Part shown: piece after piece, positions 18,472-58,818 of the stretch
Layout: the number at the start of each line of letters is the position of its first letter
How positions within the stretch are numbered: the first letter of the stretch is position 1
DNA from: an uncultured Acidimicrobiia bacterium
Lineage (GTDB): Bacteria > Actinomycetota > Acidimicrobiia > Spongiisociales > JAENVV01
Length of the DNA: 64,000 nucleotides
Reading direction: 5' to 3'
Assembly: GCA_964600365.1 (NCBI GenBank)
Contig: CAZRJG010000001.1
Span: 35,435-99,434 of the forward strand
The notes under the pieces: generated by a model
Told to the model about the DNA's origin: nothing
The model's input: the letters and a program-made list of their open reading frames with translations, nothing else
Database searches by the model: none
Position numbers and translations under genes: made by a program

Positions 18472-18485
18472 TGCAATCGTTTGTA
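18472..18485. promoter_or_regulatory. LacI-family operator-like site (TGCAATCGTTTGTA)
   Basis: In the divergent intergenic region between the E2-like gene (start 18453) and the CMD gene (start 18519). Confidence 0.5.
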
Positions 18486-18518
18486 GCAGACTCCGGGGCC
18501 CCACGCAACGGAGGAGAC

Positions 18519-19082
18519 ATGCCGCGTATCCCGTATCCCGACCTCGACGCCATCACCGACCCCGAATCCCTCGAGATCCTCGACCGGGCCCGGCGGGTCG
18601 GCACGCCCCGCCCCGAGAGCCAGGCGATCCGCTCTCGCGTGCCCGCAGTGCTCAAGACCTTTTCAGCGGCGTGGCAGGAAACCTTCGTCGAGGGCGTCGT
18701 CGACCACGACCTCAAGGAGCTCTGCCGGGTGTACGTGAGCAAGACCGTTGACTGCGGGTACTGCGGCGCTCAGCGCTCAGTCGATGCCTCCACCTCCGAG
18801 GACCACTACGACGAGATCCAGCTCTACGGGCAGAGCGACAAGTACACCGAACGCGAGAAGGCAGCCCTTGCCTACACCGACGCAATCGTGTGGAACCCCG
18901 ACTTCTCCGACGATGCCCTCTGGGAACGCCTCGACGCACACTTCACTGCCGAGGAGCTCGTCGAGCTGGGCTACTTCGTCGCCATCACCTCGGGGCAGCA
19001 GCGGTGGATCAAGACCCTCCAGTTGGGACACCGCGAGGTCATGGCCGACACCGACGCCGGCCTCCTCGAGGCAACGACCTAG
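18519..19082 (+). CDS. carboxymuconolactone decarboxylase (CMD/AhpD-like) family protein
   Basis: GGAGGAG Shine-Dalgarno sequence then ATG 18519. CGYCGAQ motif. Paralog of 46819-47409. Confidence 0.8.
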   Translation: MPRIPYPDLDAITDPESLEILDRARRVGTPRPESQAIRSRVPAVLKTFSAAWQETFVEGVVDHDLKELCRVYVSKTVDCGYCGAQRSVDASTSEDHYDEIQLYGQSDKYTEREKAALAYTDAIVWNPDFSDDALWERLDAHFTAEELVELGYFVAITSGQQRWIKTLQLGHREVMADTDAGLLEATT

Positions 19083-19088
19083 ACACCC

Positions 19089-21344
19089 CTACGCACCCGC
19101 TGGTGCGCGGGCGGAGCGGATCGCCTCCCAGACCCGTGCGGGGGTGAGCGGGAACGCGAGGTCGTCGACGCCGAGTGGCTCGAGGGCATCGAGCGTCGCG
19201 TTGAGGATTGCCGCAGGGATCCCGATCGTGCCCGACTCGCCGAACCCCTTCGCACCGAGGGGGTTGCTGGGTGCCGGGGAGACGAGGTGGCCGAAGCGGG
19301 TCTCCGGGGCGATGATCGAGGACGGCAGCAGGTAGTTCATGAGGCTGGCACTGAGCAGTTGGCCCTGGTCGTCGTAGTCCACGACCTCCCACAGGGCCTG
19401 GCCGATCCCCTGCATGAGCGACCCCCAGATCTGGCCCCGGGCCGCCATCGGATCGATGATGTTGCCACAGTCATCGATGACCACGAGGTGGTCGAGGAGC
19501 ACCTCTCCGGTCTCGGGTTCCACCTCCACGACGGCGACATGGACGCCGTAGGGGAAGGTCTGGAAGCCCGGTGAGTAGAACTCCTCCTCCCGGAGCACGA
19601 CGCCTTGCCGTTGTGCCTCGGCGTACACCTCCGCGAGACCGACGCCCGGGCCGTGGCGCTCGGCGACCGAGACCACTCCGTCGTCGATGTCGAGTTCCCC
19701 GGGTTCGGCGTCGAGCATCGTCGACGCCACCTGGAGGATGCGCTCTCGCACCACGCCTGCGGTGCGGTGCACGGCCGACCCGCCGATCTGGGTCGAGCGA
19801 CTCGCGAAGCTGCCAACACCGGCGGGCACTTCGGCGGTGTCGCCCTGGATGACCTTCACCCTCTCGAGCGGAGTGGGGATCACCTCGGCGGCAAGCTTCG
19901 CCCACACCGTCTCATGGCTCATGCCGGCAGATGCCGACCCGGAGCGCACGATGAGCCCCCCGTCGGCCGCCACCTCCACCGAGCCGTACTCGCCCGACGT
20001 GGGAGCGCCTCCGGCTCGCTCGACGAACGAAGAGAACCCTATGCCAAGTTGCCGCCCACCCTCGGACCGACGTCGTGCCTGCTCGGCACGGAGGCCGTCG
20101 AGGTCCATGGCCTCCAGCGCCAGCGTGAGCGAGCGGGGGTAGTCACCCGAGTCGTACAGCGCTCCGGAGGCCGTCTCGTACGGGAGTTGCTCGGGACGGA
20201 GCATGTTCTTGGTGCGTACCGTCACGGGGTCGACGCCGGCCGCCCGCGCGAATGCGTCCACGGCGCGCTCGATCGCGAGCACCGCCTCGGGGCGACCCGC
20301 CCCGCGGTAGGAACCGATCGGAGCACGGTTCGTGACGACCGTCGTCACGCCGAGCCGCACCTCATCCCACTCGTAGAGGCCGGGGGCGACGAGGCGGGTG
20401 AAGAGGGGGATCTGGGATCCGTTGTGGGGGTAGGCACCGACTTCGGCCTCGATGCGGAGGTCGAGTCGTCGCATGGCACCCGATCGGTCGCCGCCGATCA
20501 TCACCCGGTGGCGCATGCCACGTCCGTGGGTGCCTCCACTGAGCGCCTCCCTGCGGCCTTGGATCCAGGCGACCGGACGCCCGAGACGCCGAGCCATCTC
20601 GGCGACGACGAGGTACTCGGGGTACAGCATGTGCTTCATGCCGAACGCCCCACCCACGTCGGGGAGTACGACGCGGACCGAGTCGGCAGGGAGCCCGAGG
20701 AACGACGACACCTGGTCTCGGAACCTGTGCGGCGCGGCGTGGGAAGGACGGAGCACGAGGCCCTCCCCTTCGGGTTCGGCGAGGATGCCGAGGGGTTCGA
20801 TCGGCGTGGGGGCGAGTCGGGGGCTGTGGACGACGACCTCGATCTCGACCTCGTCGACGCCGCGGCGCATGGCACCACCCTCGGGTTCGTCGTGCATCAC
20901 GACGTTGGTGCCCTCGTCGGGGTGGAGGATGGACACATCGGCAAGGGCGGCGTCGTAGTCGGGGACCACGGGCAGCTCGTCGAGCTCAAGCCAGGCGAGC
21001 TCGGCGGCGTCGGCCGCCGCAGCGGCGCTCGTCGCCACGACGGCGGCAACGGGCTCCCCCACGTAGCGGACGACGCCGGCGGCGAGCACGGGACGGACCA
21101 TCCCCTCGGCAGCGGGACCACGCCCCGTGGAGCCGGGGATCGCATCCAGGCCGAGGTCGGCAGCCGTGACGACCGCCACCACCCCGGCGACGTCGCGGGT
21201 GGCATCGAGGTCGATCTCGTCGATCGTGGCGTGGGCGAGGGGGCTGCGCACGAAGGCGACATGGAGCGCACCCTGCGGGACGAGGTCGGCCACATAGCCA
21301 CCTGTCCCCGTCACGAACCGTTCGTCTTCCACCCGGCGCATCAT
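19089..21344 (-). CDS. xanthine dehydrogenase/CO dehydrogenase family molybdopterin-binding large subunit (CoxL-like)
   Basis: 751 aa. N-terminal a/b-hammerhead domain, Mo-cofactor-binding domains, C-terminal GFGESGTIG-type motif. No small or medium subunit genes adjacent. Confidence 0.85.
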   Translation of the reverse strand: MMRRVEDERFVTGTGGYVADLVPQGALHVAFVRSPLAHATIDEIDLDATRDVAGVVAVVTAADLGLDAIPGSTGRGPAAEGMVRPVLAAGVVRYVGEPVAAVVATSAAAAADAAELAWLELDELPVVPDYDAALADVSILHPDEGTNVVMHDEPEGGAMRRGVDEVEIEVVVHSPRLAPTPIEPLGILAEPEGEGLVLRPSHAAPHRFRDQVSSFLGLPADSVRVVLPDVGGAFGMKHMLYPEYLVVAEMARRLGRPVAWIQGRREALSGGTHGRGMRHRVMIGGDRSGAMRRLDLRIEAEVGAYPHNGSQIPLFTRLVAPGLYEWDEVRLGVTTVVTNRAPIGSYRGAGRPEAVLAIERAVDAFARAAGVDPVTVRTKNMLRPEQLPYETASGALYDSGDYPRSLTLALEAMDLDGLRAEQARRRSEGGRQLGIGFSSFVERAGGAPTSGEYGSVEVAADGGLIVRSGSASAGMSHETVWAKLAAEVIPTPLERVKVIQGDTAEVPAGVGSFASRSTQIGGSAVHRTAGVVRERILQVASTMLDAEPGELDIDDGVVSVAERHGPGVGLAEVYAEAQRQGVVLREEEFYSPGFQTFPYGVHVAVVEVEPETGEVLLDHLVVIDDCGNIIDPMAARGQIWGSLMQGIGQALWEVVDYDDQGQLLSASLMNYLLPSSIIAPETRFGHLVSPAPSNPLGAKGFGESGTIGIPAAILNATLDALEPLGVDDLAFPLTPARVWEAIRSARAPAGA

Positions 21345-21355
21345 CGCTCCTCGGC

Positions 21356-21369
21356 CACAATCGATTGCG
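21356..21369. promoter_or_regulatory. LacI-family operator-like site (CACAATCGATTGCG)
   Basis: 12 nt upstream of the coxL-like start codon. Confidence 0.5.
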
Positions 21370-21387: not shown

Positions 21388-22488
21388 TCACTCCTCCGGG
21401 GGGGCCGTCGACTCGCGCACGACGAGCGTCGGTGCGAGCGAGACGGCCCGGATCGGGGTCGCGTCCTTCTTGGAGTCGTCACGGTTCATCGCGTCGAGGA
21501 GCATGCGGGCGGCCATGGAGCCCATCTCGAAGTTCGGCAGGGCAACGGTCGTGAGGGGAGGATTGATCCGGTCCATGAAGAGCGTGTCGTTGTACCCCGT
21601 CACCGACACGTCCTCGGGCACCCGCAGGCCCGCTCGTCGGAGCACATCGAGGCACCCGACGGCGATCAGGTCGTTCGCTGCGACAAGCGCCGTGAACTCG
21701 GCTCCCGAGTCGAGCAGGTGCTGGCACGCATCTGCGCCGGGGTCGACCTGGAAGCGCTCGGCTTCGACGATGAGGTTCGGATCGAAGTCGAGTCCCTCCA
21801 TCCGCATCCAGGCCTCGAAGGCCTCCCGCCGCTTCACGGCCGTGAGCAGCGATTGCGGACCCGCCACATGGGCGATCCGCCGATGACCGAGCGAGGCGAG
21901 GTGCTTGATGACCTGGCCGATGCCGTCGTGGTCATCGGTGGTCACGCCCGGGGCGTTCGTCGGGTTGGGGTCGGGCCAGTCCTCCCCGAGCGGGGCCTGG
22001 GATCGCAGCCGGTTGACCAAGACAATCGGGATATCCGCCTTGAGGAAGTCGGCGAGCATCGTTCCACTCCGACGGGCGGTGGCGAGGATCAGGCCGTCGA
22101 CGCGACGCTCCAGCAACGTTGTCGTCACCGTTCGCTCCGTCTCCGTGTTGTTGTCGCCGTTCGCCACGAGGACGGAGTACCCGGCCTCTGCAAGGACAGC
22201 CTCGGCGCCACGGAAGATCGGCGGGAAGAGGGGGTTCATGAGGTCCGGGACCACCATGCCGACGGTGTGGGTGCGGTTCGTACGGAGGCCGCGGGCGAAG
22301 GGGTGCGGCCGGTACCCGAGCCTCTTCGCCGCCTCGACGACCTTCAGTGCCGTGTTCTCGTTCACGATCGACCGCGTCTCGGGGTTCAACGCCCGCGAAG
22401 CCGTTGAGATGTGGACGCCGGCCGCCTCGGCCACGTCGCGGAGGGTTACCTGTGCCACGCGCTCCCTTTCTCTGCAATCGTTTTGCAT
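21388..22488 (-). CDS. LacI-family transcriptional regulator
   Basis: ATG 22488, or GTG 22457 at VAQVTLRDVAEAAGVHISTASRALN (helix-turn-helix). Periplasmic-binding-fold effector domain. The long ORF 21388-23004 has a spurious N-terminal extension. Confidence 0.85.
   Translation of the reverse strand: MQNDCRERERVAQVTLRDVAEAAGVHISTASRALNPETRSIVNENTALKVVEAAKRLGYRPHPFARGLRTNRTHTVGMVVPDLMNPLFPPIFRGAEAVLAEAGYSVLVANGDNNTETERTVTTTLLERRVDGLILATARRSGTMLADFLKADIPIVLVNRLRSQAPLGEDWPDPNPTNAPGVTTDDHDGIGQVIKHLASLGHRRIAHVAGPQSLLTAVKRREAFEAWMRMEGLDFDPNLIVEAERFQVDPGADACQHLLDSGAEFTALVAANDLIAVGCLDVLRRAGLRVPEDVSVTGYNDTLFMDRINPPLTTVALPNFEMGSMAARMLLDAMNRDDSKKDATPIRAVSLAPTLVVRESTAPPEE
22473..22487. promoter_or_regulatory. 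LacI-family operator-like site overlapping the LacI start codon (TGCAATCGTTTTGCA)
   Basis: Perfect left half-site. Right half has one extra T. Position suggests autoregulation. Confidence 0.45.
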
Positions 22489-22628: not shown

Positions 22629-22642
22629 TGCAACTGATTGCA
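22629..22642. promoter_or_regulatory. LacI-family operator-like site (TGCAACTGATTGCA)
   Basis: 15 nt upstream of the OsmC ATG. Outer positions perfect; central TC to CT swap. Confidence 0.4.
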
Positions 22643-22656: not shown

Positions 22657-23145
22657 ATGAGCACCATCGTCGACGAGGTCGACCTCACCAGGCCCATCAT
22701 CCGTAGGAAGGCCATCAGCGTCCGCAACGACGCAGGGATGCTCGCCATCCACGACTTCGGGGAATACGGCTACTTCGCGACCGACGAACCGATCGCCCAT
22801 GGGGGCACCGGGGAGGGTCCCTCCCCGCTCCAAACCGTCCTCGGCGCCCTCTGTGGGTGCGAGTCGGTCACGTTCAACCGCACCGCCGAAGAGTACGGCT
22901 TCTCCTACGAGGGCATTGACTTCGAGGCCGAGTACACCATCGACGTCAGGGGCCGCATGGGAGTCGACGAAGTACGACCCCACTTCCAGACCGTGCGCGT
23001 CCAAGCGACGGTCGAAACCGACGAATCCCCCGAGCGGCTCGCCGAAGTCGTGGAGGAGACCGAACGGCGGTGCCCCGTGTTCAACCTCATCAGCGACGCC
23101 GGTGTGAGGATCCAGGTGCAGTGGGTCCGACGGCCGCTCGCCTGA
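22657..23145 (+). CDS. OsmC/Ohr family peroxiredoxin-like protein
   Basis: AGGAGGAC Shine-Dalgarno sequence then ATG 22657. OsmC fold motifs GALCGCESVT and RCPVFN. Confidence 0.8.
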   Translation: MSTIVDEVDLTRPIIRRKAISVRNDAGMLAIHDFGEYGYFATDEPIAHGGTGEGPSPLQTVLGALCGCESVTFNRTAEEYGFSYEGIDFEAEYTIDVRGRMGVDEVRPHFQTVRVQATVETDESPERLAEVVEETERRCPVFNLISDAGVRIQVQWVRRPLA

Positions 23146-23199: not shown

Positions 23200-24465
23200 C
23201 TAGTACGCGTTCGTGACGACGAGTTCCTCTGCGGGGAAGAGCGTGAGGAGCTGCGGGCCGTCCTTGGTGACCACGATCTCCTCCTCGATGCGTGCTGCTG
23301 ATCGGCCGTCGCTGGCCGGGCAGTACGTCTCGAGGGCGAACACCATGCCCTCCTCGATCTCCACCGGGTGCTCAATCGAGTTCAGGCGGCTGATGACCGG
23401 ACGCTCGTGGAGCGCCATGCCCAGGCCGTGGCCGAACTGGAGCCCGAAGGCCTCCATCTCGTTCGGGAACCCGAACTCCTCGGCCTTTGGCCACACCTTG
23501 GCGATGTCCGCCGTGGTGGCTCCCACCTTGACCTCGGCAATGGACGCATCGATCCACTCCCGGGCCTGCTTGTAGGCATCGCGGTGCGCCTGCGTCGCGC
23601 GCCCCACCGCGAACGTGCGGTAGTAGCAGGTGCGGTAGCCGTTGAACACGTGGATGATGTCGAAGTAGGCCTGGTCGCCGGGGCGGATCATCCGATCGGA
23701 GAAGACGTGCGGATGCGGGCTGCACCGCTCACCCGCGATCGAGTTGATGCCCTCGACGAACTCGGAGCCGTACTTGAGGAGCAGTTCGCTGGCCAACGCC
23801 ACGATGTCGCTCTCCCGGATCCCGGGCTTCAGCTCCTCGTAGATGTGCTGGTACACCGCGTCGACCATCGAGGCCGCCTGGCTGAGCAGCATGATCTCGT
23901 CCTGGTTCTTGATGTGGCGGGCGTCGAGCATCGTCTGCTGCCCGTCCCGCACGTCGAAGCCCACGGCTTCGAGCTGGCGGAGCATCGGCATCTCAATCAC
24001 GTCGACGCCGAGTGGCTCGTCTCCGAGGCCCTCCGCATCGAGGATCGACTTGAGCTCCTTGGCAGCCGCCTCCGGGAGGCCGGCGTCGGGGGCGATCGCA
24101 CCCATGAGGCCGGTGTTGCCGCCCACCGAGTGCTCGGGCTTGATCCAGGGTGCCTGTGTGTGATGGGCCTTGGCCGCAGAGCCGAAGTCCCAGATGCGAG
24201 GTTCACCCTTGCGGGTCAGCAGGGCGTACCGCTCGCACTTGCCGTACGCCCAGTAGCCGATGGTGGTGGCGGTGACGTACCGGATGTTGCTCGTGTCGAA
24301 CAGCAGGATGGCACCGAGGTCGCTGGCCTCCAGCGCCTCGACGGCCCGCTTGAGGCGGTACTCGCGGAGCCGCTGGAAGTTGACGCGCTCCTCCCAATCG
24401 ACGCCCATCACACCCGGGGCGGGGATGCTCGTCTGTGCGAACTCGGCTTCGAGTGGATTGATCAT
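23200..24465 (-). CDS. M24 family metallopeptidase (creatinase/Xaa-Pro aminopeptidase/ectoine-hydrolase-like)
   Basis: 421 aa. Creatinase-type N-domain plus pita-bread catalytic domain (FGHGLGMALHERP, ALETY). Confidence 0.8.
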   Translation of the reverse strand: MINPLEAEFAQTSIPAPGVMGVDWEERVNFQRLREYRLKRAVEALEASDLGAILLFDTSNIRYVTATTIGYWAYGKCERYALLTRKGEPRIWDFGSAAKAHHTQAPWIKPEHSVGGNTGLMGAIAPDAGLPEAAAKELKSILDAEGLGDEPLGVDVIEMPMLRQLEAVGFDVRDGQQTMLDARHIKNQDEIMLLSQAASMVDAVYQHIYEELKPGIRESDIVALASELLLKYGSEFVEGINSIAGERCSPHPHVFSDRMIRPGDQAYFDIIHVFNGYRTCYYRTFAVGRATQAHRDAYKQAREWIDASIAEVKVGATTADIAKVWPKAEEFGFPNEMEAFGLQFGHGLGMALHERPVISRLNSIEHPVEIEEGMVFALETYCPASDGRSAARIEEEIVVTKDGPQLLTLFPAEELVVTNAY

Positions 24466-24474
24466 GGCTTCCTT

Positions 24475-25410
24475 TCAGCCGGAGAGTCCGTCATCAACCA
24501 TACGCTCTTCGGACACGAGCTCCATGGCGGAGGCCGCAGCCCCCATTTCAAGGAGGGCCCCGAAGTCCTGGTCACCCAGGCCCCGGCCGATGCCCTCCAT
24601 CACCATCTGGTGGACGAGCGCCGAGGCCGGGAGCGGCACGTCGAGCGCACGACTCTGTTCGAGCCCGAGCTCGAAGTCCTTGCGGAGGAGGTGCCACGTG
24701 AAGGTCGGCGTCCAATCGAGGTTCACGAACGCCGGCGACTTGTAGCGGGTGAACACCGAGCCCATGACGCTGTCGTTGAGGAAGTCGAGATAGTCGTAGC
24801 GCGACACGCCCGCCTTCTCCACCAAGAGCGCGGTCTCGGCCATCATCTGGGTGACCACGCCGAGCATGAGGTTGTGGGCGATCTTCACGAGGCGGGCCTC
24901 GTCGCCACCACCCACGTAGGTGCACTTGGTCCCGTACATCTCGAGGTAGGGCCTCGCGAGGTCGTACGCACCACGGGGACCCGAGGCGACCGACGTCAGC
25001 TTGCCGGACGACACGACCTTGGGATTGCCACTGACCGGAGCGGCGAGCACCGCCACGCCGAGATCGGCCGCAGCGGCACGAAGGATCTCCGAGGTCTGGG
25101 GATCGATCGTGGTCGAGTCGATGATCATCTTGGGGACGACGCCCTCCTTCGAGAGCACGCCGTGCTCCCCCGTCGTCACCTCGAGGACGTCCTTGGGCCC
25201 AGCGACCATGGTGAAGACGATGTCGCGGTCCGCGAGGTCTGCCGGGGTGTCCACGACCGTTGCGCCGAGCTCGCCGAGGGGTTCTGCCTTCGACCGCGTG
25301 CGGTTCCACACCGAGAGGTCACAACCTCCCGCGAGGAGGCGTTCACACAGGGCGTAGCCCATGCGCCCGGTACCGATCCAACCAAGCGTCAGTGCCTTCG
25401 GATCACTCAT
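24475..25410 (-). CDS. NAD(P)-dependent 3-hydroxyisobutyrate/tartronate-semialdehyde reductase family oxidoreductase
   Basis: ATG at 25410 (MSDPKALTLGWIGTGRMG, Rossmann fold). 6-PGDH-like NAD-binding and C-terminal helical domains. Confidence 0.8.
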   Translation of the reverse strand: MSDPKALTLGWIGTGRMGYALCERLLAGGCDLSVWNRTRSKAEPLGELGATVVDTPADLADRDIVFTMVAGPKDVLEVTTGEHGVLSKEGVVPKMIIDSTTIDPQTSEILRAAAADLGVAVLAAPVSGNPKVVSSGKLTSVASGPRGAYDLARPYLEMYGTKCTYVGGGDEARLVKIAHNLMLGVVTQMMAETALLVEKAGVSRYDYLDFLNDSVMGSVFTRYKSPAFVNLDWTPTFTWHLLRKDFELGLEQSRALDVPLPASALVHQMVMEGIGRGLGDQDFGALLEMGAAASAMELVSEERMVDDGLSG

Positions 25411-25423: not shown

Positions 25424-25437
25424 CGCAATCGATTGCA
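25424..25437. promoter_or_regulatory. LacI-family operator-like site (CGCAATCGATTGCA)
   Basis: 14 nt upstream of the HIBADH-family ATG. Confidence 0.5.
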
Positions 25438-25482: not shown

Positions 25483-26229
25483 CTACGCCCCGGCGGCACT
25501 CCAGAGGAGGCGGACCACCGACGCCACGAGCACGCCGAGCACGACGTACTCGAACGTCTTCCTCTGGATACGACGGGAGACCCGCATCCCGAGCGGCACA
25601 ACCATCAGGGCGGGGATCGTTGCGATGAGACCCTGCCCGAGCCGATCCCATGTGAGCATGTCGAGCGTCCAGTACCCCACGTACTGCATCACCCCGAAGA
25701 TCCAGAACGGGACGGTGATAGAGAAGATGAACACCGACGGATCGAGGCGGAGCCCGTGGAGGTAGGTGGCGAGGACGGGTGCCGACACGCCCGTCGCCCC
25801 TTGGAGCGCCCCGCCGACGAGGCCGACGGGCGCGCTCAGCCACTTCGCAATGCGCTCCCCGATCCGGAACTCCTGGTCGGTGAGGTACCGCACGATGTAG
25901 GCGATGACCACGCCGGCGAGCACCCATGACAACGCCACATCATCGAGCTCACTGAGCAACCAGGCCCCTGCAAGGGTGCCGAAGAGCCCCGCAATGAGCA
26001 TCGAAGGGAGGTACGCCTTCGTATCGCCCGCGGAGCCACGGTGCGCCCACAGGAGCCACGAGTTGGCGAGGAGCGACGGCACCGAGATGACCACCACGGC
26101 CTGCTCGATCCCGACGAAACCGGCCATGACGGGGATGGCGAGCATGGGGCCACCCATTCCGGTGACCCCCTTCACGAAGAACCCCGTCCCCACCGTGAGG
26201 ACGACGAGGAGGATCTCAACGGGATCCAT
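25483..26229 (-). CDS. TSUP (TauE/SafE) family sulfite/organosulfonate exporter
   Basis: 248 aa. Eight TM helices. Duplicated TauE motif (GMGGPMLAIP). Confidence 0.75.
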   Translation of the reverse strand: MDPVEILLVVLTVGTGFFVKGVTGMGGPMLAIPVMAGFVGIEQAVVVISVPSLLANSWLLWAHRGSAGDTKAYLPSMLIAGLFGTLAGAWLLSELDDVALSWVLAGVVIAYIVRYLTDQEFRIGERIAKWLSAPVGLVGGALQGATGVSAPVLATYLHGLRLDPSVFIFSITVPFWIFGVMQYVGYWTLDMLTWDRLGQGLIATIPALMVVPLGMRVSRRIQRKTFEYVVLGVLVASVVRLLWSAAGA

Positions 26230-26277
26230 GCGAACCCGATCGACGAGCGCGTGAACTCACGCGCGGCGCTCCCATGT

Positions 26278-26652
26278 TCAGACGTCGTCGTCCTTCACCC
26301 AGATGGTCTCCGAAGGCTTCGGCACCCAGAGCTCGATGAAGGTGAAGGTGGTGTCGGTGGGGTTCTCGAACCAGTGGACCTCGTCCTCGACCACCAGGGC
26401 GACATCCCCGGGGGCGAGGTCATAGGAGGCGTCATCCACATGGAGCATCCCCGATCCGTCGAGGACGAAGAAGAAGTGTTTGGCGTCCAGGTGGTAGTGG
26501 GCGGCAGCGGTGTCACCGGGGTGATAGGTGATCTTGTCCGCCTTGATCGAGGTGAGGCCGAACAGCTCCTCGGTGATGAGGTCGACCCGGTCGCGGCCGT
26601 CACGCGTGGAGTCGAGAACGGGCAGGTCGGCCCGTTTGATCACGCTTGCCAT
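26278..26652 (-). CDS. cupin domain protein
   Basis: YHPGDTAAAHYHLDAKHFFFVLDGSG, a cupin His-ligand pattern. Confidence 0.7.
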   Translation of the reverse strand: MASVIKRADLPVLDSTRDGRDRVDLITEELFGLTSIKADKITYHPGDTAAAHYHLDAKHFFFVLDGSGMLHVDDASYDLAPGDVALVVEDEVHWFENPTDTTFTFIELWVPKPSETIWVKDDDV

Positions 26653-26674
26653 GAGTCCTCCTCAGTCCGTCCGA

Positions 26675-26712
26675 AACGACGGGTGGGGCCCCTCGGGGCC
26701 CCACCCGTCGTT
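26675..26712. terminator. terminator hairpin (17-bp perfect stem) downstream of the ABC substrate-binding-protein gene
   Basis: aacgacgggtggggccc-ctcg-gggccccacccgtcgtt. Confidence 0.65.
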
Positions 26713-26730
26713 CGGCTTGATCGGTGCGGC

Positions 26731-27894
26731 CTAGAAGTTCTCGACGAGTTCCTTGCCCTCAGTGAGGTCGAGGGCCGGGTTCGTGTCGAGACCAAGGGCC
26801 TCCTGCGCCGTGTGGAGGTCGGAGACGTCCACCCAGTCGCGCCACTTGTCGTTGATGTCCGGGGCAACGTTGCCGTAGGGCACCACGAACTCCATCCACC
26901 AGTCCATCTGGGCGGGGTCGAAACCGAGGTCCTGCGAGAGGATCGTGGCATCGATGCGCCACACGTTCTCGTCGAAGAACGCGTCGGGGAGGTCGATGCC
27001 GTGATCCTCTGAGAGGATCCGCACGAGCTCGTCGAAGTTGGCTCGGGTCTTCGTCCAGCGCTGCGCCTGGATGTAGGCGTAGTTCCACGCTGCCGCGAAG
27101 CCCGGGTCCTCGTTCCGCTTGTCGCCGGTCATGACGAAGCCACCCTGGGGGACGTTGAAGAAGTCCGAGTACAGGGCACTACCGCCGTCGGCCTCTGCGA
27201 GGGGGACGTGGCGAGAAAACGCAACCGTGGCGTCGATCTGGCCGGTGAGCATTGCCTGCACCCAGTCATTGGAGCCACCGGTCATCTCGGTGAACACCAC
27301 GTCGTTCTCCCAGTCGAGACCGAGCTCGCCAAGCATGAACTTGCAGATCGCCTCGTTCACCTGGCCGGCACGGCCACCACCGACCCGCTTGCCGCGGAGA
27401 TCGTCGGCGCTGGTGATGCCAGCGTTGGCGATGAGGATGAGTGGCTGCGCACCGAGGTTCACGGAGATCATCCGCGTGTCGGCCGGGAGCACACCCTTGT
27501 CCATGCCGTCGAAGAAGACATCGGAGTCGTAGAGCGAAACGTCGTAGTCACCCGAGAGGGTCGGGGGAACCGGGTCATCGGCGTCGTTGATTGTGAGATC
27601 GGTGATGCCGACCTCTTCGAAGAAGCCGAGCGACTGGCCCACGTACAGCGGGGCACGCAGCAGTCGGTTCGGGTTGTTGTACCCGACCGTCACCGCAGAC
27701 TTCGTGGTCGTTGGGATGCCCGAACCCGCGGTCGTACCCGGCGCGGCGGTCGTCGCCGGCGCAGCCGTGGTCGTGGTGTCACCACTCCCGGCCCCACAGG
27801 CAGCGAGAGCCAGCCCACCAAGGGCCATACCACTCATGCCGAGGAACTGGCGCCGAGTAGGCGTACCGAGTCCTCGATCCTTCTTTTCCACCAT
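26731..27894 (-). CDS. ABC transporter substrate-binding lipoprotein (NitT/TauT family, SsuA/ThiY-like), Tat signal
   Basis: GGAGGAG Shine-Dalgarno sequence then ATG 27894. RRQFLGMSGMALGGLALAAC is a Tat motif plus lipobox. Confidence 0.85.
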   Translation of the reverse strand: MVEKKDRGLGTPTRRQFLGMSGMALGGLALAACGAGSGDTTTTAAPATTAAPGTTAGSGIPTTTKSAVTVGYNNPNRLLRAPLYVGQSLGFFEEVGITDLTINDADDPVPPTLSGDYDVSLYDSDVFFDGMDKGVLPADTRMISVNLGAQPLILIANAGITSADDLRGKRVGGGRAGQVNEAICKFMLGELGLDWENDVVFTEMTGGSNDWVQAMLTGQIDATVAFSRHVPLAEADGGSALYSDFFNVPQGGFVMTGDKRNEDPGFAAAWNYAYIQAQRWTKTRANFDELVRILSEDHGIDLPDAFFDENVWRIDATILSQDLGFDPAQMDWWMEFVVPYGNVAPDINDKWRDWVDVSDLHTAQEALGLDTNPALDLTEGKELVENF

Positions 27895-27950
27895 GTTTCT
27901 CCTCCGTTGTCTCGACCGAACCCGTGTGATCCAGCCCACTTGGTGTGGCG

Positions 27951-29724: not shown

Positions 29725-29738
29725 CGCAATCGTTTGTA
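29725..29738. promoter_or_regulatory. LacI-family operator-like site (CGCAATCGTTTGTA)
   Basis: 18 nt upstream of the ABC ATPase start. Confidence 0.5.
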
Positions 29739-33392: not shown

Positions 33393-33406
33393 TGCAATCG
33401 ATTGCC
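33393..33406. promoter_or_regulatory. LacI-family operator-like site (TGCAATCGATTGCC)
   Basis: Divergent region between the OsmC-like gene (33345) and the ADH gene (33437). Confidence 0.5.
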
Positions 33407-34640: not shown

Positions 34641-34654
34641 CACAATCGATTGCA
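34641..34654. promoter_or_regulatory. LacI-family operator-like site (CACAATCGATTGCA)
   Basis: 33 nt upstream of ATG 34687. Structured 216-bp leader upstream. Confidence 0.5.
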
Positions 34655-34686
34655 GGATCTTGGTTTCGCCGTCTAGAGTGGGCTCC

Positions 34687-36772: not shown

Positions 36773-36796
36773 CTTCACCAACGAAAGGAACCACGA

Positions 36797-37855: not shown

Positions 37856-37867
37856 CGCACCAAGGGG

Positions 37868-39853: not shown

Positions 39854-39889
39854 GCAGACGGCGCTCGGCGCCGGGAAGGAACGACAGAG

Positions 39890-40171: not shown

Positions 40172-40205
40172 CGCACCCCACCCGAGCATCCCAAGGAGTA
40201 CACAC

Positions 40206-41381: not shown

Positions 41382-41403
41382 GAAGAGAACCAGCAACGCA
41401 GAC

Positions 41404-41447
41404 ACGGCGAGCGGCAGGGGCAACCTGCCGCTCGCCGTCCTCGTTTC
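41404..41447 (+). terminator. intrinsic terminator after the uxaA-like gene
   Basis: acggcgagcggcagg-ggcaa-cctgccgctcgccgt then cctcgtttcc. 15-bp stem. Confidence 0.6.
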
Positions 41448-41462
41448 CACACAGGAGGGACC

Positions 41463-44450: not shown

Positions 44451-44497
44451 CCTGGGCTCCTCCCGAGCGGTCGCGTGCAGCTCGGCCACACTACACT

Positions 44498-44511
44498 TGA
44501 AATCGATTGCA
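44498..44511. promoter_or_regulatory. LacI-family operator-like site (TGAAATCGATTGCA)
   Basis: Divergent region between hydrolase paralog 3 and the PrdB/GrdB-like gene. Confidence 0.5.
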
Positions 44512-46817: not shown

Positions 46818-46818
46818 G

Positions 46819-47455: not shown

Positions 47456-47469
47456 CGCAAACGATTGCT
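47456..47469. promoter_or_regulatory. LacI-family operator-like site (CGCAAACGATTGCT), weaker
   Basis: Divergent region between CMD paralog 2 and the MFS gene. Confidence 0.35.
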
Positions 47470-49537: not shown

Positions 49538-50718
49538 TCCTCAGACTGCAACCGATTGTAGGCGGCGGATGGATGGCGGCGGTCCACGAGGAAGATCCCC
49601 GATCGGGGCTTGGGGGCGAAGAACGTGGACTTGGGGGGCATCACCCCTCCGTGATCGGAGATCGAGAACATCGCCTGGAGCGAGGGGGGATGGAGGAGGA
49701 AGCCCGTGCCCCCGAGGACCTCCACCCGATCGCACACGGTCGATGCACCGGTGGTTCCCGGCAGCGACTCGAGCCGATCGTCGGTCCGCGTGTCCCGGAT
49801 CCCGAGGAGCGGGCCGAGGATCGTTCGCTCGAGGGCGGCGACATCCAACTCATCGGCGGATCCTCCGAGTCCTACGCGCCGCCAGCCATTCCCGGTCACG
49901 ACCACGGTCTCGCCCGCCACTGGCGAGGGCGGCGGCCCGTCCTCCCATGACCCTCCATCGGCGGGCCATGCCACATCGACCCAGCGATGGAACGGACGCA
50001 CGATGAGTTCATCGGCCGGCACCGCGGCAACGAGGACCCGCCCCGCAGGATCCTCCCGGCTGGCGCCCACCTCATGGGCATGCCGACGCGCCGAGGCCAT
50101 GCGGTGGTGCCCGTCGATCACATAGGCAACCGGAACCTCGTCGAAGGCGTCGGAGACCTCTGGAACGAAGGCCGGCGGCACCCTCCAGATGACATGGCGC
50201 TCCTCCTGCAACAGGAGGTCGAGCACCGGGTCGCCCCTCGTCACGCCCGACACGGCAGCCCGGAGTCGTTCCGACCCCCGGTGGGTGACGCTGACCGGGT
50301 TGGAAGTCATCCCCACCTCGGCGAGGTACGAAGCGAGCGACGCCTCACGGTCGGGCATCGTTCGTTCGTGGGGGCGGACGAACCCCGGGTAGTCGTCGAC
50401 GTGGATGTCCGCCACGAGGGCGGTCTGCTCGTGCCCGCCGTCGGAGATCCGGTAGACGAAGATCCCCTCCTCCACCGGGCCGAACGCCCCCTCGTCGATG
50501 CGGTCCTCGAGGTACTCGGCCGCGGCGCGCCGGAGCGCTTCCGGTTCTGCCCGGGGGTCATCGGACGGGTCGGGCGTTGCGTGGAGGAAGGAGAGCGGGC
50601 GATCGATCGCCGTCGCACGCCGAGCGGCGTCCTCCACCGAACCCTCCGGGGGGCCCACGACCTCACTCGCATGGGTGGGCGCGACGAGTCGCACACGGAC
50701 GGGATGGAGGCGTCCCAC
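49534..50718 (-). CDS. DUF1015 family protein
   Basis: 394 aa. AYVIDGHHR motif typical of DUF1015. 4-nt overlap with the FAH start. Confidence 0.6.
   Translation of the reverse strand: MGRLHPVRVRLVAPTHASEVVGPPEGSVEDAARRATAIDRPLSFLHATPDPSDDPRAEPEALRRAAAEYLEDRIDEGAFGPVEEGIFVYRISDGGHEQTALVADIHVDDYPGFVRPHERTMPDREASLASYLAEVGMTSNPVSVTHRGSERLRAAVSGVTRGDPVLDLLLQEERHVIWRVPPAFVPEVSDAFDEVPVAYVIDGHHRMASARRHAHEVGASREDPAGRVLVAAVPADELIVRPFHRWVDVAWPADGGSWEDGPPPSPVAGETVVVTGNGWRRVGLGGSADELDVAALERTILGPLLGIRDTRTDDRLESLPGTTGASTVCDRVEVLGGTGFLLHPPSLQAMFSISDHGGVMPPKSTFFAPKPRSGIFLVDRRHPSAAYNRLQSEE
49547..49560. promoter_or_regulatory. LacI-family operator-like site (TGCAACCGATTGTA) inside the 3' end of the DUF1015 gene
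   Basis: 10 nt upstream of the FAH GTG. Confidence 0.4.
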
Positions 50719-54717: not shown

Positions 54718-55326
54718 TCATCCGACGCGGACGAAGAAGCGCTCGACCTGGTCGGCGAACCGTGATCGCTGTTCCGCCCCGACCCGGTCGAGGCCGTACA
54801 TCGCGAGGAAGCGGGTCTTCGCCCCGTAGCGGCACAGCGATCGGAGTCCCTTGAGGAACATCGCCTTCCCGACCTCGCCTTCGAGGACGTTCACCCACTT
54901 GGGGGCTCCATGCGTGGTGACGACGGTGAGGCGGCGCACGGCGAGCAGTTTCGGGCGGATCGTCGTCGCCCCCTCGGGGAGGTCGTACGCGACGCCTTCC
55001 GCCCACACGCGGTCCACCCATCCTTTCAGGATCGCCGGGGGCCCGGACCACCACGTGGGGTACACCCACACGATGTGCTCGGCCCACCGAAGGGCGTCGA
55101 ACTGGTCGGCGAGCCACGGCTTCCGCTCCGGAGGAGCATGATGGAGGGCGCGTTCCTCGGCGCTGAGCACCGGATCGAATCCCATCTCGTGGAGGTCGAG
55201 CAGGCGGCACTCGGCACCCGCCCGCTCCAGACCCCGCAGGACCCGGTCGCGGAGGTGGGCAGTGAACGAGTTCGGATGCGGATGCGCGTACACGACGAGG
55301 GTCCTCACAGCGAGGCCACCCCGCAC
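54718..55326 (-). CDS. NAD(P)H dehydrogenase (quinone)-like flavodoxin-fold oxidoreductase, copy 1
   Basis: VVYAHPHPNSF...YPTWWSGPPAILKGWVDRV (Flavodoxin_2/NQO1-like). Confidence 0.75.
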   Translation of the reverse strand: MRGGLAVRTLVVYAHPHPNSFTAHLRDRVLRGLERAGAECRLLDLHEMGFDPVLSAEERALHHAPPERKPWLADQFDALRWAEHIVWVYPTWWSGPPAILKGWVDRVWAEGVAYDLPEGATTIRPKLLAVRRLTVVTTHGAPKWVNVLEGEVGKAMFLKGLRSLCRYGAKTRFLAMYGLDRVGAEQRSRFADQVERFFVRVG

Positions 55327-55898
55327 CGGACCCGCTCAAGGAACTCCACCCGCTCGGCGTCGCTCCTTCCGTCCATCCCGTAGAGCCCGAACCACTCCTT
55401 GCGCAGGGTGTGCGGGGCGTTGAGGCGGAGGGCCCGATGCAGCATCCGCCGTCCCCCGTCACCGAAGAACGCCGAGTACGCCCTCGACGCGCCGTATGTG
55501 GACACACCAGCGATGGCGCGGAGTTCGGTCAGGTTGGGGCGCACCCGACCACCCTCGAGGGTGAATGCGACGCCGGGCACGAATACCCGATCGAGCCACC
55601 CCTTGAGGATCGCCGGCGGCCCGAACCACCACGTCGGATAGACGAAGCAAAGGAGTGCGGCCTGCGACACGAGCGCGGCGTGTCTCCCAACGATGCCATC
55701 GAGGTCCGGAGCCCCGCTCGAGTACGCCTCCCACTCGCCGGCGCCCATCACCGGATCGAAGCCGAGTCGGTGGAGGTCGAGCGCTGCGACGTGATACCTG
55801 CTGTCGAGTCCGGCTACTGCGGCGTCGAACAACGCCATCGAGTAGGAATCTGGATCCGGGTGGGCGCCGACGACAACAGCGCGGGGCCGATCCCCCAC
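55305..55898 (-). CDS. NAD(P)H dehydrogenase (quinone)-like flavodoxin-fold oxidoreductase, copy 2 (tandem paralog)
   Basis: VVVGAHPDPDSYS...YPTWWFGPPAILKGWLDRV. Start taken at GTG 55898. The long ORF extends to 55979. Confidence 0.65.
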   Translation of the reverse strand: MGDRPRAVVVGAHPDPDSYSMALFDAAVAGLDSRYHVAALDLHRLGFDPVMGAGEWEAYSSGAPDLDGIVGRHAALVSQAALLCFVYPTWWFGPPAILKGWLDRVFVPGVAFTLEGGRVRPNLTELRAIAGVSTYGASRAYSAFFGDGGRRMLHRALRLNAPHTLRKEWFGLYGMDGRSDAERVEFLERVRCGVASL

Positions 55899-56500
55899 TA
55901 CGGGGTCACCACCACGGTCGTCCCTACGTCGGCGAACCGGTACATCCGGATGGCGTCCGGGAGGGACTGACGCACACACCCACCACTGAGCGCCGTGCCC
56001 AACTCATCGAGGGTCTGGTAGGGGCTCCCATCACCGTGGATGGGGATGTCGTGGAACCCAATGTTCGTCTTGTCGGTGCGGGCAAACCGCACCATCCACC
56101 GCATCGTGGTGTTCGGATCGAGGAAGGAGCGCGTGATCGGCGACTTCGAAAAGACCGAGTAGGTGCCCGGATTCGGCCACCCCTTCCGCCCCGAAACGAG
56201 GTAGTTGGCGACGACAGACCCATCCTCGGTCACCAACCACACCATCTGGTCGTCGAGCGCATACACGACCCTCCTCCCCTCCCCCGAATCCTCCGGCAGC
56301 GGGGCGAGGAGTACGTCTTCGGCCGCCGCCCACAAGTAGCGATCGAAGGCCCGAAGCCCCCGGTCCCACGTCCACTCGAACCGCTGGACCGTGTCGGCGC
56401 CGGGGATCGACAGGCGGGGTGGTGCCCAGGCGGCCGCGCCAGCAGGCGCCGACCCGAGGAGGACGGCGAGCAAGACCCCGGACGCGAGGAAACGGCGCAC
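55898..56500 (-). CDS. secreted L,D-transpeptidase (YkuD domain)
   Basis: Signal peptide. Catalytic HGDG...SGGCVRQ motif. Confidence 0.8.
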   Translation of the reverse strand: MRRFLASGVLLAVLLGSAPAGAAAWAPPRLSIPGADTVQRFEWTWDRGLRAFDRYLWAAAEDVLLAPLPEDSGEGRRVVYALDDQMVWLVTEDGSVVANYLVSGRKGWPNPGTYSVFSKSPITRSFLDPNTTMRWMVRFARTDKTNIGFHDIPIHGDGSPYQTLDELGTALSGGCVRQSLPDAIRMYRFADVGTTVVVTP

Positions 56501-56530
56501 GACCGTCAGGCTACCGGGCCTGTTGGAGGA

Positions 56531-57523
56531 TCAACCGAACAGGCGTTGCGCGTTCCCCCCGACGATGGCGTCGACCGTGGCCTCGTCGAACCCGACGGAC
56601 TCGACGAAGGAGACCGGATCCTGGTCGCCCATCGGGAAGGGGTAGTCGGTCCCGAGCAACACCTTCTCGGCGCCGAAGTAGCGAACCAAGTAGTCGAGGG
56701 CGATCGGGGCATGGACCACGGTGTCCACGTAGAGCGCTTTGAGGTAGTCGCTCGGGGGCCTCGAGATGTGGCGCGCGGACTTGCCGGGGACCATCTTGTA
56801 CCCCTTGTCCATGCGCCCCGCCTGGTACGGGGCGAATCCCCCGCCGTGCACGACGCAGAGTGTGAGGTCGGGATACCGCTCGAAGACACCCGAGAAGATG
56901 AGACCGGCGAGGGCGATCGTCGACTCGGCGGGGCGCGCCACCATGTTGTCCATGAAGTAGCGATCGACGTCGACACCCGCGAGCGGTCGCATCGGGTGCA
57001 GGAGGATGAACGCACCGGTCTCCTCTGCCGCCTCCCACAGGGCATCGAGGCCTTCCACCTCGTCGAGGAAGTCTCCGTCGACGGTCGTCGCTATCTCGAG
57101 GCCCGACATGCCCAGTTCCGTCATCGCGTGGCCAAGTTCCTCCACCGCGATGTCCGGATGCTGGAGCGGGGCGGTCCCGAGGGCTCGGAACCGCTCCGGT
57201 GCCTTGGCCGCCTCCTCCGCGAGCGCCTCGTTGTGCGCACGGGTGTACTCCGACGCCACGGACCGGGAGAGTTCGTATCCGGTGAGGTCGATCCACCCGG
57301 CGAGCACCTGCACGTCGATCCCCATGCGGTCGATCTCCGACAACCTCCGGTCGACATCGGTGATGTCGTCGCGGAACGGCGCCGTCGTGACCTTGTCGGC
57401 GAACCTGGCGGCGGGACCCTTGGGCGTCTCGACCAGGTCGACGCCGACCTTGCCGCCGTGGGCCGAGAGCCACTCGCGGAACGAGGCCGGGATGCAGTGT
57501 GCGTGGACGTCGTAGGTGGGCAT
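56531..57523 (-). CDS. amidohydrolase_2 family protein (ACMSD/LigW decarboxylase or sugar-lactonase-like)
   Basis: HAHCIP N-terminal metal ligands. TIM-barrel hydrolase motifs. Confidence 0.8.
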   Translation of the reverse strand: MPTYDVHAHCIPASFREWLSAHGGKVGVDLVETPKGPAARFADKVTTAPFRDDITDVDRRLSEIDRMGIDVQVLAGWIDLTGYELSRSVASEYTRAHNEALAEEAAKAPERFRALGTAPLQHPDIAVEELGHAMTELGMSGLEIATTVDGDFLDEVEGLDALWEAAEETGAFILLHPMRPLAGVDVDRYFMDNMVARPAESTIALAGLIFSGVFERYPDLTLCVVHGGGFAPYQAGRMDKGYKMVPGKSARHISRPPSDYLKALYVDTVVHAPIALDYLVRYFGAEKVLLGTDYPFPMGDQDPVSFVESVGFDEATVDAIVGGNAQRLFG

Positions 57524-57533
57524 GGTGCTCCTG

Positions 57534-58781
57534 TCAGTCGGTGTCGTGGGTGGGACGGTAGGCGGGCAACTCAGGGAGCCATCTCGCGATGGCGAGGATG
57601 CCGAGGATGCACATCACACCCCCGGAGAAGAGGGACATCTGGGGCGAACTGAACGATGCAACGGCCCCTGCACGGAAGTCGCCGATCCGAGGACCGCCAG
57701 CGACCACGCCGACGTGGATCGCGGAGAGCCGCCCCCGCAGCTCGTCGGGTACGGCCGCTTGGAGCAAGGTGGTTCGGAAGACCGCTGATGCAACGTCGGC
57801 AGCGCCCGCAACGGCGAGGAACACAACCATCATCCACAGCGACGAGCCGAGGCCGACCGCGGCGATCGCCGCACCCCAGGTCGCGATCGAGATGATGATC
57901 ACTCTGCCTTGGCGCTTCACCGCGCCGACCCACCCCGAGGTGACCGCCGCAACGAGCGCACCGGCTCCGGGCGCGGCGAAGAGGATGCCCACGGTCGTCG
58001 CATCCCCGCCGAGGACCGTCTCGCCGAGCGCGGGGAAGAGGGCCTGGGGGGCACCGAAGACCATCGCGTTGATGTCCGCGAGGAAGTTCGCCTGGAGGAG
58101 CCGCCGATCCTTGAGGAAGGAGAAACCCTCCTTGATCGAGTCGACCCCGAAGCGCCGGCCACCCCCCTCCGGGACGAGCGTCGGCAGTCGGAACAGTGCG
58201 ATGGCGCTGAGGCAGAACAGAACGGCCTCTGCGGCGAAGCTGATCGTGAGGCCAGCCTGGGCGATGAGCAGCCCGCCGATCGCAGGTCCCGCCGTCTTGG
58301 CGATGTTGAAGAGCGTCTGGATGATGGCGAAGGCCTGCGCGAGGTGCCGCTCGCCCACGAGCACCGGGATCGAGGCGGATCGCGAGGGATTGTCGATCGC
58401 CGAGATCCCCGCGTTGAGACCAGCGAGCACGAAGACGAGCCACACCCTTGGTTCGTCGAGGGCCGCGTTGAGAGCGAGGCCAGTCGCCGTGGCGGCGAGC
58501 AGCATTTGGGTGAGGAGGAGCAGGCGCCGCCGATCCACAGAGTCGACGATCGCTCCACCGATCACCGACGTGAGGAGGAGGGGGACCAGTTGCGCAATCC
58601 CGAGGGCACCGACGAGCAGGGTGGAACCGGTGAGTTGGTACACCTGATACGGGACGGCGACGATCGTGAACTGCCGTGCCGTCACCGAGAGCGTCATGCC
58701 CCCGAAGAGCCATCGGAAGCCTCGCGACGCCCGCAGGGGCGCCACGTCGACGAAGAACTGCCGACCGCTCCCTTCGCTCAT
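57534..58781 (-). CDS. MFS transporter
   Basis: 415 aa. Twelve TM helices. Confidence 0.8.
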   Translation of the reverse strand: MSEGSGRQFFVDVAPLRASRGFRWLFGGMTLSVTARQFTIVAVPYQVYQLTGSTLLVGALGIAQLVPLLLTSVIGGAIVDSVDRRRLLLLTQMLLAATATGLALNAALDEPRVWLVFVLAGLNAGISAIDNPSRSASIPVLVGERHLAQAFAIIQTLFNIAKTAGPAIGGLLIAQAGLTISFAAEAVLFCLSAIALFRLPTLVPEGGGRRFGVDSIKEGFSFLKDRRLLQANFLADINAMVFGAPQALFPALGETVLGGDATTVGILFAAPGAGALVAAVTSGWVGAVKRQGRVIIISIATWGAAIAAVGLGSSLWMMVVFLAVAGAADVASAVFRTTLLQAAVPDELRGRLSAIHVGVVAGGPRIGDFRAGAVASFSSPQMSLFSGGVMCILGILAIARWLPELPAYRPTHDTD

Positions 58782-58804
58782 CCCGCTGCCGACCTCCTTG
58801 GACC

Positions 58805-58818
58805 TGCAATCGTTTGGA
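58805..58818. promoter_or_regulatory. LacI-family operator-like site (TGCAATCGTTTGGA)
   Basis: 24 nt upstream of the MFS ATG 58781. Confidence 0.45.

Follow-up and report, generated by a model that had tools for sequence, protein, structure and literature searches.

The 64,000-nucleotide (nt) stretch of DNA analysed here, called the window below, comes from an uncultured Acidimicrobiia bacterium (contig CAZRJG010000001.1, positions 35,435 to 99,434 of the forward strand) and has a G+C content of approximately 68%. It contains a lacI-type regulator gene and a set of short palindromes that precede catabolic, transport and redox genes and are predicted to be operators of the regulator. Genes were called by third-position GC content, with some corrected by hand (including sseA and several starts), families were assigned from Pfam and NCBIfam, and the extents of operons were taken from gene spacing. 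From 15.9 to 64 kb, no transcription factor could be recognised apart from the regulator, which has helix-turn-helix (HTH) and periplasmic-binding-protein-type domains, in agreement with an earlier reading of the sequence (the initial annotation), which had named it the only transcription factor of the island; a LuxR-type response regulator and a kinase at 12.4–14.3 kb lay outside that span.

The predicted product of the regulator gene is a canonical LacI/GalR family protein, for which the public gene index contained no identical sequence. Its residues 15–61 matched the LacI HTH domain (PF00356, 43.3 bits against a cut-off of 27), and its effector domain matched Peripla_BP_3 (PF13377, 133.8 bits) and Peripla_BP_1 (PF00532, 108.5 bits). 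The protein aligned over its full length with the structures of CcpA, PurR, RbsR, and LacI, and the hinge motif ARGL was conserved, PFARGLRT of the regulator being aligned with AVARGLAS of CcpA. In the LacI family, a leucine "lever" of the hinge helix contacts the central CpG of the operator, and the conserved hinge is in keeping with the nearly invariant central CG of the palindromes described below. Orthologues aligned with the regulator from residue 14 only, and an alternative start codon, GTG at 22458, is preceded by AAGGGAG; translation may start there rather than at the annotated ATG at 22488. A 12-residue insertion in the effector domain (residues approximately 165–176, GEDWPDPNPTNA) was missing from all five closest orthologues.

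When the whole window was searched with the pattern TGCAATCGATTGCA at no more than three mismatches, 12 matches were found, whereas dinucleotide-preserving shuffles gave 1.25 ± 1.13 and never more than 4. Eleven of the matches are the strong sites of Table 1 other than that at 2077, and these coincided with 11 of the 12 coordinates listed in the initial annotation, which had counted at least 12 operator-like palindromes. The remaining match, at 14704, lay within a PspC/LiaF-like gene, scored below 8 bits, and was probably due to chance. A symmetrised matrix of 20 positions made from the 11 confirmed sites gave bimodal scores across the window: 12 sites scored 18–26 bits, the site at 22473 scored 12.2 bits, and all others scored below 9. 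The matrix scan added one strong site, CACAAACGTTTGCA at 2077–2090, 16 kb outside the 40-kb island (18–59 kb) to which the set had been assigned; 11 strong sites do lie within 40 kb, but the island does not contain the whole set. The site at 22473, TGCAATCGTTTTGC, had been counted as a full member; with four mismatches it was the weakest of the 13, and we did not retain it as such.

The information of the motif was confined to positions 1–14, the flanks carrying approximately 0.1 bit per position. After symmetrisation, A4, A5, T10, and T11 were invariant in 22/22 half-sites and C3, C7, G8, and G12 were present in 21/22, giving a nearly invariant core, C-A-A-n-C-G-n-T-T-G, with two outer positions that vary on both sides. 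The predicted operator is thus a 14-bp even palindrome with a central CG, T-G/A-C-A-A-t/a-C-G-a/t-T-T-G-C/T-A, and its spacing was identical at all 12 strong sites. The nearly invariant left half-site and variable right half-site described earlier proved to be an artefact of the chosen strand. The assignment of the motif to the LacI/GalR operator pattern held, since most LacI-family operators are even palindromes with a central CG (PMC4052901).

The cluster of palindromes is genuine and not a product of chance. Among 630 palindromes with half-sites permuted at the same composition, the real motif was unique: it had 10 matches in non-coding DNA, where the others averaged 0.11 and never exceeded 2, and 8 matches at no more than two mismatches, where none of the others had more than 3. 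Shuffled intergenic DNA alone yielded 0.017 matrix sites per trial. Non-coding DNA makes up 8% of the window and held 11 of the 12 strong sites (P approximately 1e-11), the exception being the site at 49547, within the last nine codons of a DUF1015 gene. A search of the window for long repeats found no longer repeat or mobile element containing the sites, and an Rfam scan of the window returned tRNA-Val only, with no family matched at the sites.

Table 1. Predicted operators and the regulator gene in the window, with matrix scores and distances to the nearest refined gene starts
Feature	Position	Strand	Adjacent genes or basis	Score (bits)	Gap (nt)
Operator CACAAACGTTTGCA	2077..2090		between EamA (1164-2036, -) and M24/creatinase-N (2101-3234, +)	21.9	40 to EamA start; 10 to ATG 2101
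Operator	18472..18485		between E2-like lipoyl + L-2-hydroxyglutarate oxidase (LhgO) unit (15906-18453, -) and CMD-like (18519-19082, +)	25.3	18 to E2/LhgO unit; 33 to CMD-like
Operator	21356..21369		upstream of Mo-hydroxylase large-subunit gene (19089-21344, -), just past lacI stop	22.7	11
LacI-family transcription factor, predicted repressor of the whole set	21388..22488	-	Pfam, structure alignment, orthologues
Weak operator-like site TGCAATCGTTTTGC	22473..22486		lacI 5' end	12.2
Operator	22629..22642		upstream of OsmC-like gene 1 (22657-23145, +), lacI/OsmC divergent region	20.4	14
Operator	25424..25437		HIBADH-like + M24 (DddP-like) operon (23200-25410, -)	25.6	13 to refined ATG 25410
Operator	29725..29738		ABC ATPase/permease/NMT1-type binding protein/cupin/TauE unit (25483-29707, -)	21.4	17
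Operator	33393..33406		between OsmC-like gene 2 + rhodanese sseA (32108-33345, -) and Zn-alcohol dehydrogenase (33437-34471, +)	21.2
Operator	34641..34654		nine-gene operon (34678-42290, +)	25.9	23
Operator	44498..44511		between FrsA-like hydrolase + EamA unit (42430-44489, -) and PrdB-like gene (44534-45325, +)	23.5	8, 22
Operator	47456..47469		between CMD + LVIVD-repeat unit (45657-47409, -) and MFS (47523-48713, +)	18.4	46, 53
Operator TACAATCGGTTGCA (gene orientation)	49547..49560		upstream of FAH-family gene (48710-49531, -), within DUF1015 3' end	23.4	15
Operator	58805..58818		MFS_3/amidohydrolase_2/YkuD/two flavodoxin-like reductases (54718-58781, -)	22.5	23

With refined starts, the operators lay 8–53 nt upstream of the first gene of approximately 18 predicted transcription units comprising 40–43 genes; the position upstream of or near starts agreed with the initial annotation, and its range of 10–50 nt was slightly too narrow. 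Strong operators separated five divergent gene pairs (2077, 18472, 33393, 44498, and 47456), and a sixth pair, lacI and OsmC-like gene 1, shared the site at 22629. The list of targets drawn up earlier, including sseA and a split UxaA, was essentially right by Pfam and NCBIfam families. The Mo-hydroxylase large subunit carried the Pfam domains MoCoBD_1/2 and Ald_Xan_dh_C, and the genes around the 33393 operator were assigned to OsmC, Rhodanese, and ADH, with the rhodanese gene sseA at 32108–32947. The nine-gene operon encoded a 2-hydroxyacid dehydrogenase, a creatininase-family protein, a cupin, a Gfo/Idh/MocA protein, two alpha/beta hydrolases, SAF and GD_AH proteins, and an F420-type LLM protein, the SAF and GD_AH pair representing a split UxaA-like dehydratase. 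The unit behind the 58805 operator may extend as far as 51962, taking in an ABC ATPase, a permease, and a gene without an assigned family. Units of the island without a site were a short ADH gene (29751–30665), an FrsA-like gene at 30770, the DUF1015 gene, and a KAS III gene.

Several targets were paralogous to one another: the two CMD genes (18519–19082 and 46819–47409, 71% over 147 nt), two alpha/beta hydrolases (37868–38953 and 43311–44489), and tandem flavodoxin-like reductases (54718–55326 and 55305–55898). The regulon also contained two genes each for OsmC, EamA, MFS, and cupin proteins. The paralogous pairs suggest that the regulon grew by duplication.

We compared 86 related loci from genomes and metagenomes, in which the regulator had from 59% down to 32% identity with that of the window, and scored a site as present when the window matrix gave at least 15 bits within approximately 330 nt upstream of the regulator gene. 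Such a site was present in 17/17 loci with at least 53% identity, in 11/18 with 45–52%, in 1/6 with 41–44%, and in none of 31 paralogous loci with 40% or less. The density of sites was 1.94 per 10 kb in the loci with at least 45% identity and 0.14 per 10 kb in those with 40% or less, even though these have the lower GC content; several orthologues had two sites upstream of the regulator gene. The motif-bearing loci shared the recognition helix GVHxxTASRALN and, after it, a loop that exceeds that of CcpA by two residues, whereas distant loci without the motif had other recognition helices, such as VSVFTVSAVVN. In the group with 45–49% identity, the divergent partner was a Liv-type binding protein and not OsmC, and the site remained beside the regulator gene. 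The co-occurrence of regulator clade and motif, the shared helix, and the change of partner with the site kept point to a cognate regulator–operator pair with conserved autoregulation; this is the standard kind of comparative-genomics evidence for such a pair, and it supports the predicted link between regulator and motif. The earlier interpretation, with a single repressor for the whole set, was supported.

The targets were partly conserved as well. In essentially all loci with at least 53% identity, an OsmC-like gene (66–74% identity) was divergent from the regulator with a site between them. HIBADH orthologues (70–74% identity) with a site were present in five loci (L002, L004, L008, L010, and L023), and an EamA orthologue with a site in L004. 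Locus L023 contained the island in compact form, with six sites spread over 21 kb, preceding an FrsA-like gene, a 2-hydroxyacid dehydrogenase/creatininase/cupin/Gfo operon, CMD and the regulator, OsmC, and HIBADH and an LhgO-like gene; its CMD orthologue and the regulator gene formed a divergent pair with two sites, and its HIBADH gene was divergent from the LhgO-like gene. In L030, the regulator was the last gene of a 2-hydroxyacid dehydrogenase/creatininase/Gfo/cupin/FAH/SAF/GD_AH operon with the motif upstream, which marks this catabolic operon as the core target. A frequent extra target was a Liv-type (Peripla_BP_6) binding protein (at approximately +6.9 kb from the regulator in L002, L003, L007, and L014; also in L031–L033 and L040–L044), paired in some loci with a GH88-like gene; the Liv-type transporter was absent from the window, where an NMT1-type ABC system was present instead.

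The geometry of candidate promoters was examined in the window. The best promoter, TTGACA-16-TAGGAT upstream of the HIBADH gene, ended 5 nt before the 25424 operator, so that this operator spans the predicted transcription start. A weaker candidate of similar geometry, TTGAAA-17-TAGCGT, lay upstream of the 29725 operator of the ABC unit, a candidate GACAAT -10 box started 20 nt upstream of the 21356 operator of the Mo-hydroxylase gene, and TTGAAG-17-TAGTAT lay directly upstream of the weak site at 22473. If translation starts at GTG 22458, the weak site may be a promoter-proximal operator at +1 and not a site on the start codon. In three sites of the window and in most of the regulator-proximal sites of orthologues, the half-site facing the gene was TACAAT or TACAAA, which is -10-like, and the TACAAT half of the 49547 site could act as a -10 box. 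Wherever a promoter was recognisable, the operator overlapped the -10 box or followed it at once. Ribosome-binding sites directly followed the operators. A scan of 18–37 kb with the sigma-70 consensus returned one promoter, no more than chance.

In our judgement, the regulator is probably a LacI-family repressor that acts on these operators by occluding promoters and is released by an inducer. Most likely, a dimer of the regulator would bind the 14-bp palindrome, and the bound repressor would block RNA polymerase at approximately 18 units with 40–43 genes, its own gene included. Repression would be steric, at or beside the -10/+1 region, with short leaders, and a small-molecule inducer, probably a substrate or intermediate of the pathway encoded at 34678–42290, would release the repressor. 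Autoregulation had been proposed earlier on the ground of a site on the lacI start codon. That ground weakened, the site being the weakest of the set and perhaps one that overlaps the transcription start, but the proposal itself gained from the strong sites that precede all close orthologues of the regulator gene (17/17). Of the LacI regulators surveyed, 72% are autoregulated, and most have operators with a central CG (PMC4052901).

Several points weigh against this interpretation. Even a relaxed scan found sigma-70-like hexamers at only 4 of the approximately 18 promoters, so the position of the operators relative to transcription starts is mostly deduced, and the site closest to the regulator's own start was the weakest, that at 22473. 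Seven of the 18 loci with 45–52% identity lacked a site upstream of the regulator gene; six of these had sites elsewhere in the locus and L036 had none. Beyond the visible 64 kb, the genome may contain further sites or another paralogue of equal specificity. The OsmC, CMD, rhodanese, quinone reductase, and selenoprotein genes are atypical cargo for LacI regulators, as carbohydrate genes are the targets of 96% of the LacI groups for which a pathway has been assigned (survey of Ravcheev et al. 2014). Finally, binding, the sign of regulation, the logic of induction, and the extents of the operons are predicted from the sequence.

The motif is close to the generic consensus of the LacI family, and the string GCAAACGTTTGC reportedly appears in the literature on the PurR regulon and on MalR of pneumococci. 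With only 64 kb of the genome visible and a weak site next to the regulator's own start, the palindromes might be genuine operators of a regulator encoded elsewhere, for example a LacI paralogue whose specificity, GCAAnCGnTTGC, is like that of PurR or MalR; the neighbouring lacI gene would then be just one target. We consider this improbable, because the motif followed the clade and the recognition helix of this particular regulator across many gene contexts, was absent beside 31 more distant paralogues, and stayed beside the regulator gene in the 45–49% group, in which the divergent partner was a different gene, of Liv type. The regulator might instead need a co-repressor, as PurR does, or might activate transcription or have a dual role at some sites, and would then not be a simple inducible repressor; this is also unlikely, although to a slightly lesser degree. 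The sign of regulation is invisible in the sequence, the core of the operator resembles the PurR box, and sites 40–53 nt from starts (2077 for EamA, 33393 for OsmC-like gene 2, and 47456) could lie upstream of their promoters. However, the cargo is catabolic, transport-related or detoxifying and not biosynthetic, most sites abut a ribosome-binding site or overlap a recognisable -10/+1 region, which is the position of a repressor, and most LacI regulators bind DNA without a ligand (PMC4052901).

The palindromes could also act as RNA, in the form of hairpins in 5'-untranslated regions, or be a generic repeat or promoter element, since they lie 8–53 nt from start codons and may be transcribed. 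We regard this as very improbable. The predicted hairpins had negligible energies of 0 to -4.7 kcal/mol, 11/60 outer positions were unable to pair, the sequence was conserved without covariation, and the same site serves divergent genes on both strands. Neither an Rfam match nor a longer repeat family was found, the flanks were unconserved, and composition-matched palindromes did not pile up in non-coding DNA. Binding by the LacI-family regulator as an inducible repressor remains the interpretation that we prefer for these sites.

We then compared the predicted system with characterised ones. Orthology of the regulator with CytR, PurR, CcpA, or RbsR was rejected, all scores being far below the NCBIfam equivalog cut-offs (CcpA, 183.5 against 442; RbsR, 207.8 against 382). 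Among known operators, the motif came closest to the PurR/MalR core GCAAACGTTTGC and to the half-sites of CytR. Operators of the PurR/MalR type are likewise even palindromes in which the centre is CG and the core is GCAAnCGnTTGC, and they are bound by regulators with the same two domains and hinge leucine. The regulator differed from PurR in its score (163 bits against a cut-off of 501) and from PurR and MalR in its targets, which are catabolic, transport, and redox genes and not those of purine biosynthesis or maltose; moreover, the preferred centre of the operator was ATCGAT, and the HTH loop after the recognition helix was two residues longer. The TGCAA/TTGCA half-sites recall those of CytR, which was the second-best NCBIfam model, and the SRAL signature of the recognition helix presumably resembles that of CytR. 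The CytR model NF008269 gave 201 bits against a cut-off of 436, spacing was fixed at all 12 sites, and the cargo was not nucleoside-related; CytR of gamma-proteobacteria, in contrast, uses TGCAA/TTGCA half-sites with variable spacers in CRP-dependent anti-activation (PMC3454398). A literature search with motif strings returned papers on PurR and MalR through GCAAACGTTTGC and otherwise unrelated results, none of them on this regulon. The comparison supports a new orthologous group with its own predicted regulon, the mechanism itself being, as far as can be predicted, ordinary LacI-type repression.

In size, with 12 strong operators, approximately 18 predicted units, and 40–43 genes, the predicted regulon is like the global regulons of GapR, PckR, and FruR. 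A LacI regulon has been called global when it comprises more than 15 genes in at least seven operons, and GapR controls 7–18 genes in 5–13 operons (Ravcheev et al. 2014). As to the further criterion of multiple pathways, the target families in the window were heterogeneous and gave no pathway assignment. Whereas the sites of GapR, PckR, and FruR are dispersed and serve central carbohydrate metabolism, those described here are packed into 57 kb (12 strong sites, all but one of which lie within 40 kb), precede peripheral catabolic, transport, and redox genes, and apparently include the regulator's own.

Among the encoded proteins, only two passed curated cut-offs: the L-2-hydroxyglutarate oxidase (equivalog, 511 bits against 299) and a member of an F420-dependent LLM subfamily. 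The best model for the FAH protein was 2,4-didehydro-3-deoxy-L-rhamnonate hydrolase (205 bits; cut-off, 500). IolR, UxaR, and ExuR were counted among the nearest LacI-type regulators, and LacI-family IolR groups exist (PMC4052901). An inositol route was considered on account of four enzyme families in the window: Gfo/Idh/MocA (125 bits on the IolG model), Zn-alcohol dehydrogenase (146 bits on IolM), creatininase (51 bits on IolN), and the UxaA-like pair. The same four families, IolG, IolM, IolN, and UxaA, are presumably those of the steps of a Thermotoga maritima-type inositol route. However, the scores were far below the cut-offs of 355, 450, and 245 for IolG, IolM, and IolN, respectively, so that orthology was not supported, and the FAH, F420-LLM, and alpha/beta hydrolase genes are extra here. 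More generally, creatinine, creatine or sarcosine, inositol, and organosulfonate (suggested by TauE and SsuA-like proteins) were considered as substrates, but no assignment was retained for want of a match above equivalog cut-offs. The same applied to dimethylsulfoniopropionate (DMSP): the M24 protein (23200–24465, -) had the DMSP lyase DddP as its best NCBIfam model over its full length, but with 120 bits against a cut-off of 600 it is a distant relative only.

Our best guess from these families is a non-phosphorylative sugar-acid or cyclitol-type route. The sugar-acid or lactone-like catabolism suggested by the initial annotation was a reasonable guess in view of the L030 operon and the Gfo, creatininase, UxaA, and FAH families. 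A large part of the cargo, however, is of a redox or detoxifying type rather than catabolic: two OsmC proteins, two AhpD-like CMD proteins, the lipoyl E2-like protein, a rhodanese, two flavodoxin-like quinone reductases, and the PrdB-like selenoprotein. One may speculate that this set protects against a reactive intermediate. The arrangement of E2-like, LhgO, and CMD genes recalls lipoyl-dependent AhpD and OsmC/Ohr peroxidase systems. The E2-like protein in the 15906–19082 region had a lipoyl domain and two E3-binding domains without a recognisable acyltransferase or catalytic domain. In related loci, the LhgO orthologue of L004 followed a gene for an E1 component (E1_dh) and a second, unscanned gene, the HIBADH gene of L002 was followed by an aldehyde dehydrogenase gene, and a TPP enzyme was additionally present in L053. 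Members of the regulator clade with the GVHxxTASRALN helix occurred in uncultured Acidimicrobiia-like bacteria and in others from the environment. We advance only tentatively, as a rather unlikely extension of these observations, that this clade might be the master switch of a "supra-operon" joining an undescribed ring-cleaving or sugar-acid-like route with thiol/selenol and lipoyl redox protection, and that its effector might be a non-carbohydrate or reactive intermediate and not a sugar.

The PrdB-like gene contained an in-frame TGA at 45044–45046 within ...ALMVPG-U-PMCHRS..., a UxxC motif, and the frame was open to 45325. A homologue in L023 (5989–6762, 58% identity) had a stop in the same column and conserved sequence beyond it, and on this basis the gene likely encodes a PrdB-family selenoprotein. 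The protein matched PF07355 (32.6 bits; cut-off, 22), whereas its low score on TIGR04483 (112 bits against 300) ruled out a genuine D-proline reductase PrdB. UxxC is the motif of the PrdB family, members of which abound in marine samples (PMC2398784). An 11-bp hairpin spanning the UGA had a z-score of only -1.65, and no tRNA-Sec was found in the 64-kb window.

Outside the predicted regulon, the window contained, in the region 5155–5273, tRNA-Val(TAC) at 5200–5273 (-), whose 3' end was overlapped by a 30-nt inverted repeat without a spacer and with 87% complementarity, and, in the region 15845–15927, a 40-nt inverted repeat between two genes that converge, with their ends at 15852 and 15906. 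Both inverted repeats are probably terminators. A histidine kinase with a PspC domain, a response regulator of the LuxR type and, divergently, a PspC/LiaF-like membrane protein were encoded at 12393–15595; they form a module of the envelope-stress type, in which the scan of the window found no strong motif site.

The operator map delimits, more clearly than is usual, approximately 40 predicted co-regulated genes in an uncultured high-GC bacterium and offers a good starting point for pathway discovery. It brings into one group a creatininase-family hydrolase, the FAH and FrsA-like hydrolases, the split UxaA-like dehydratase, an orphan subunit of a Mo-hydroxylase, the DddP-like M24 protein, and the PrdB-like selenoprotein. 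Because 93% of reconstructed LacI regulons comprise no more than 20 genes and 69% comprise one or two operons (Ravcheev et al. 2014), a regulon that is of global size yet clustered, and apparently autoregulated, represents a rare architecture. Many environmental loci have kept this pair of regulator and operator, which could serve as an orthogonal inducible system once the ligand is known.

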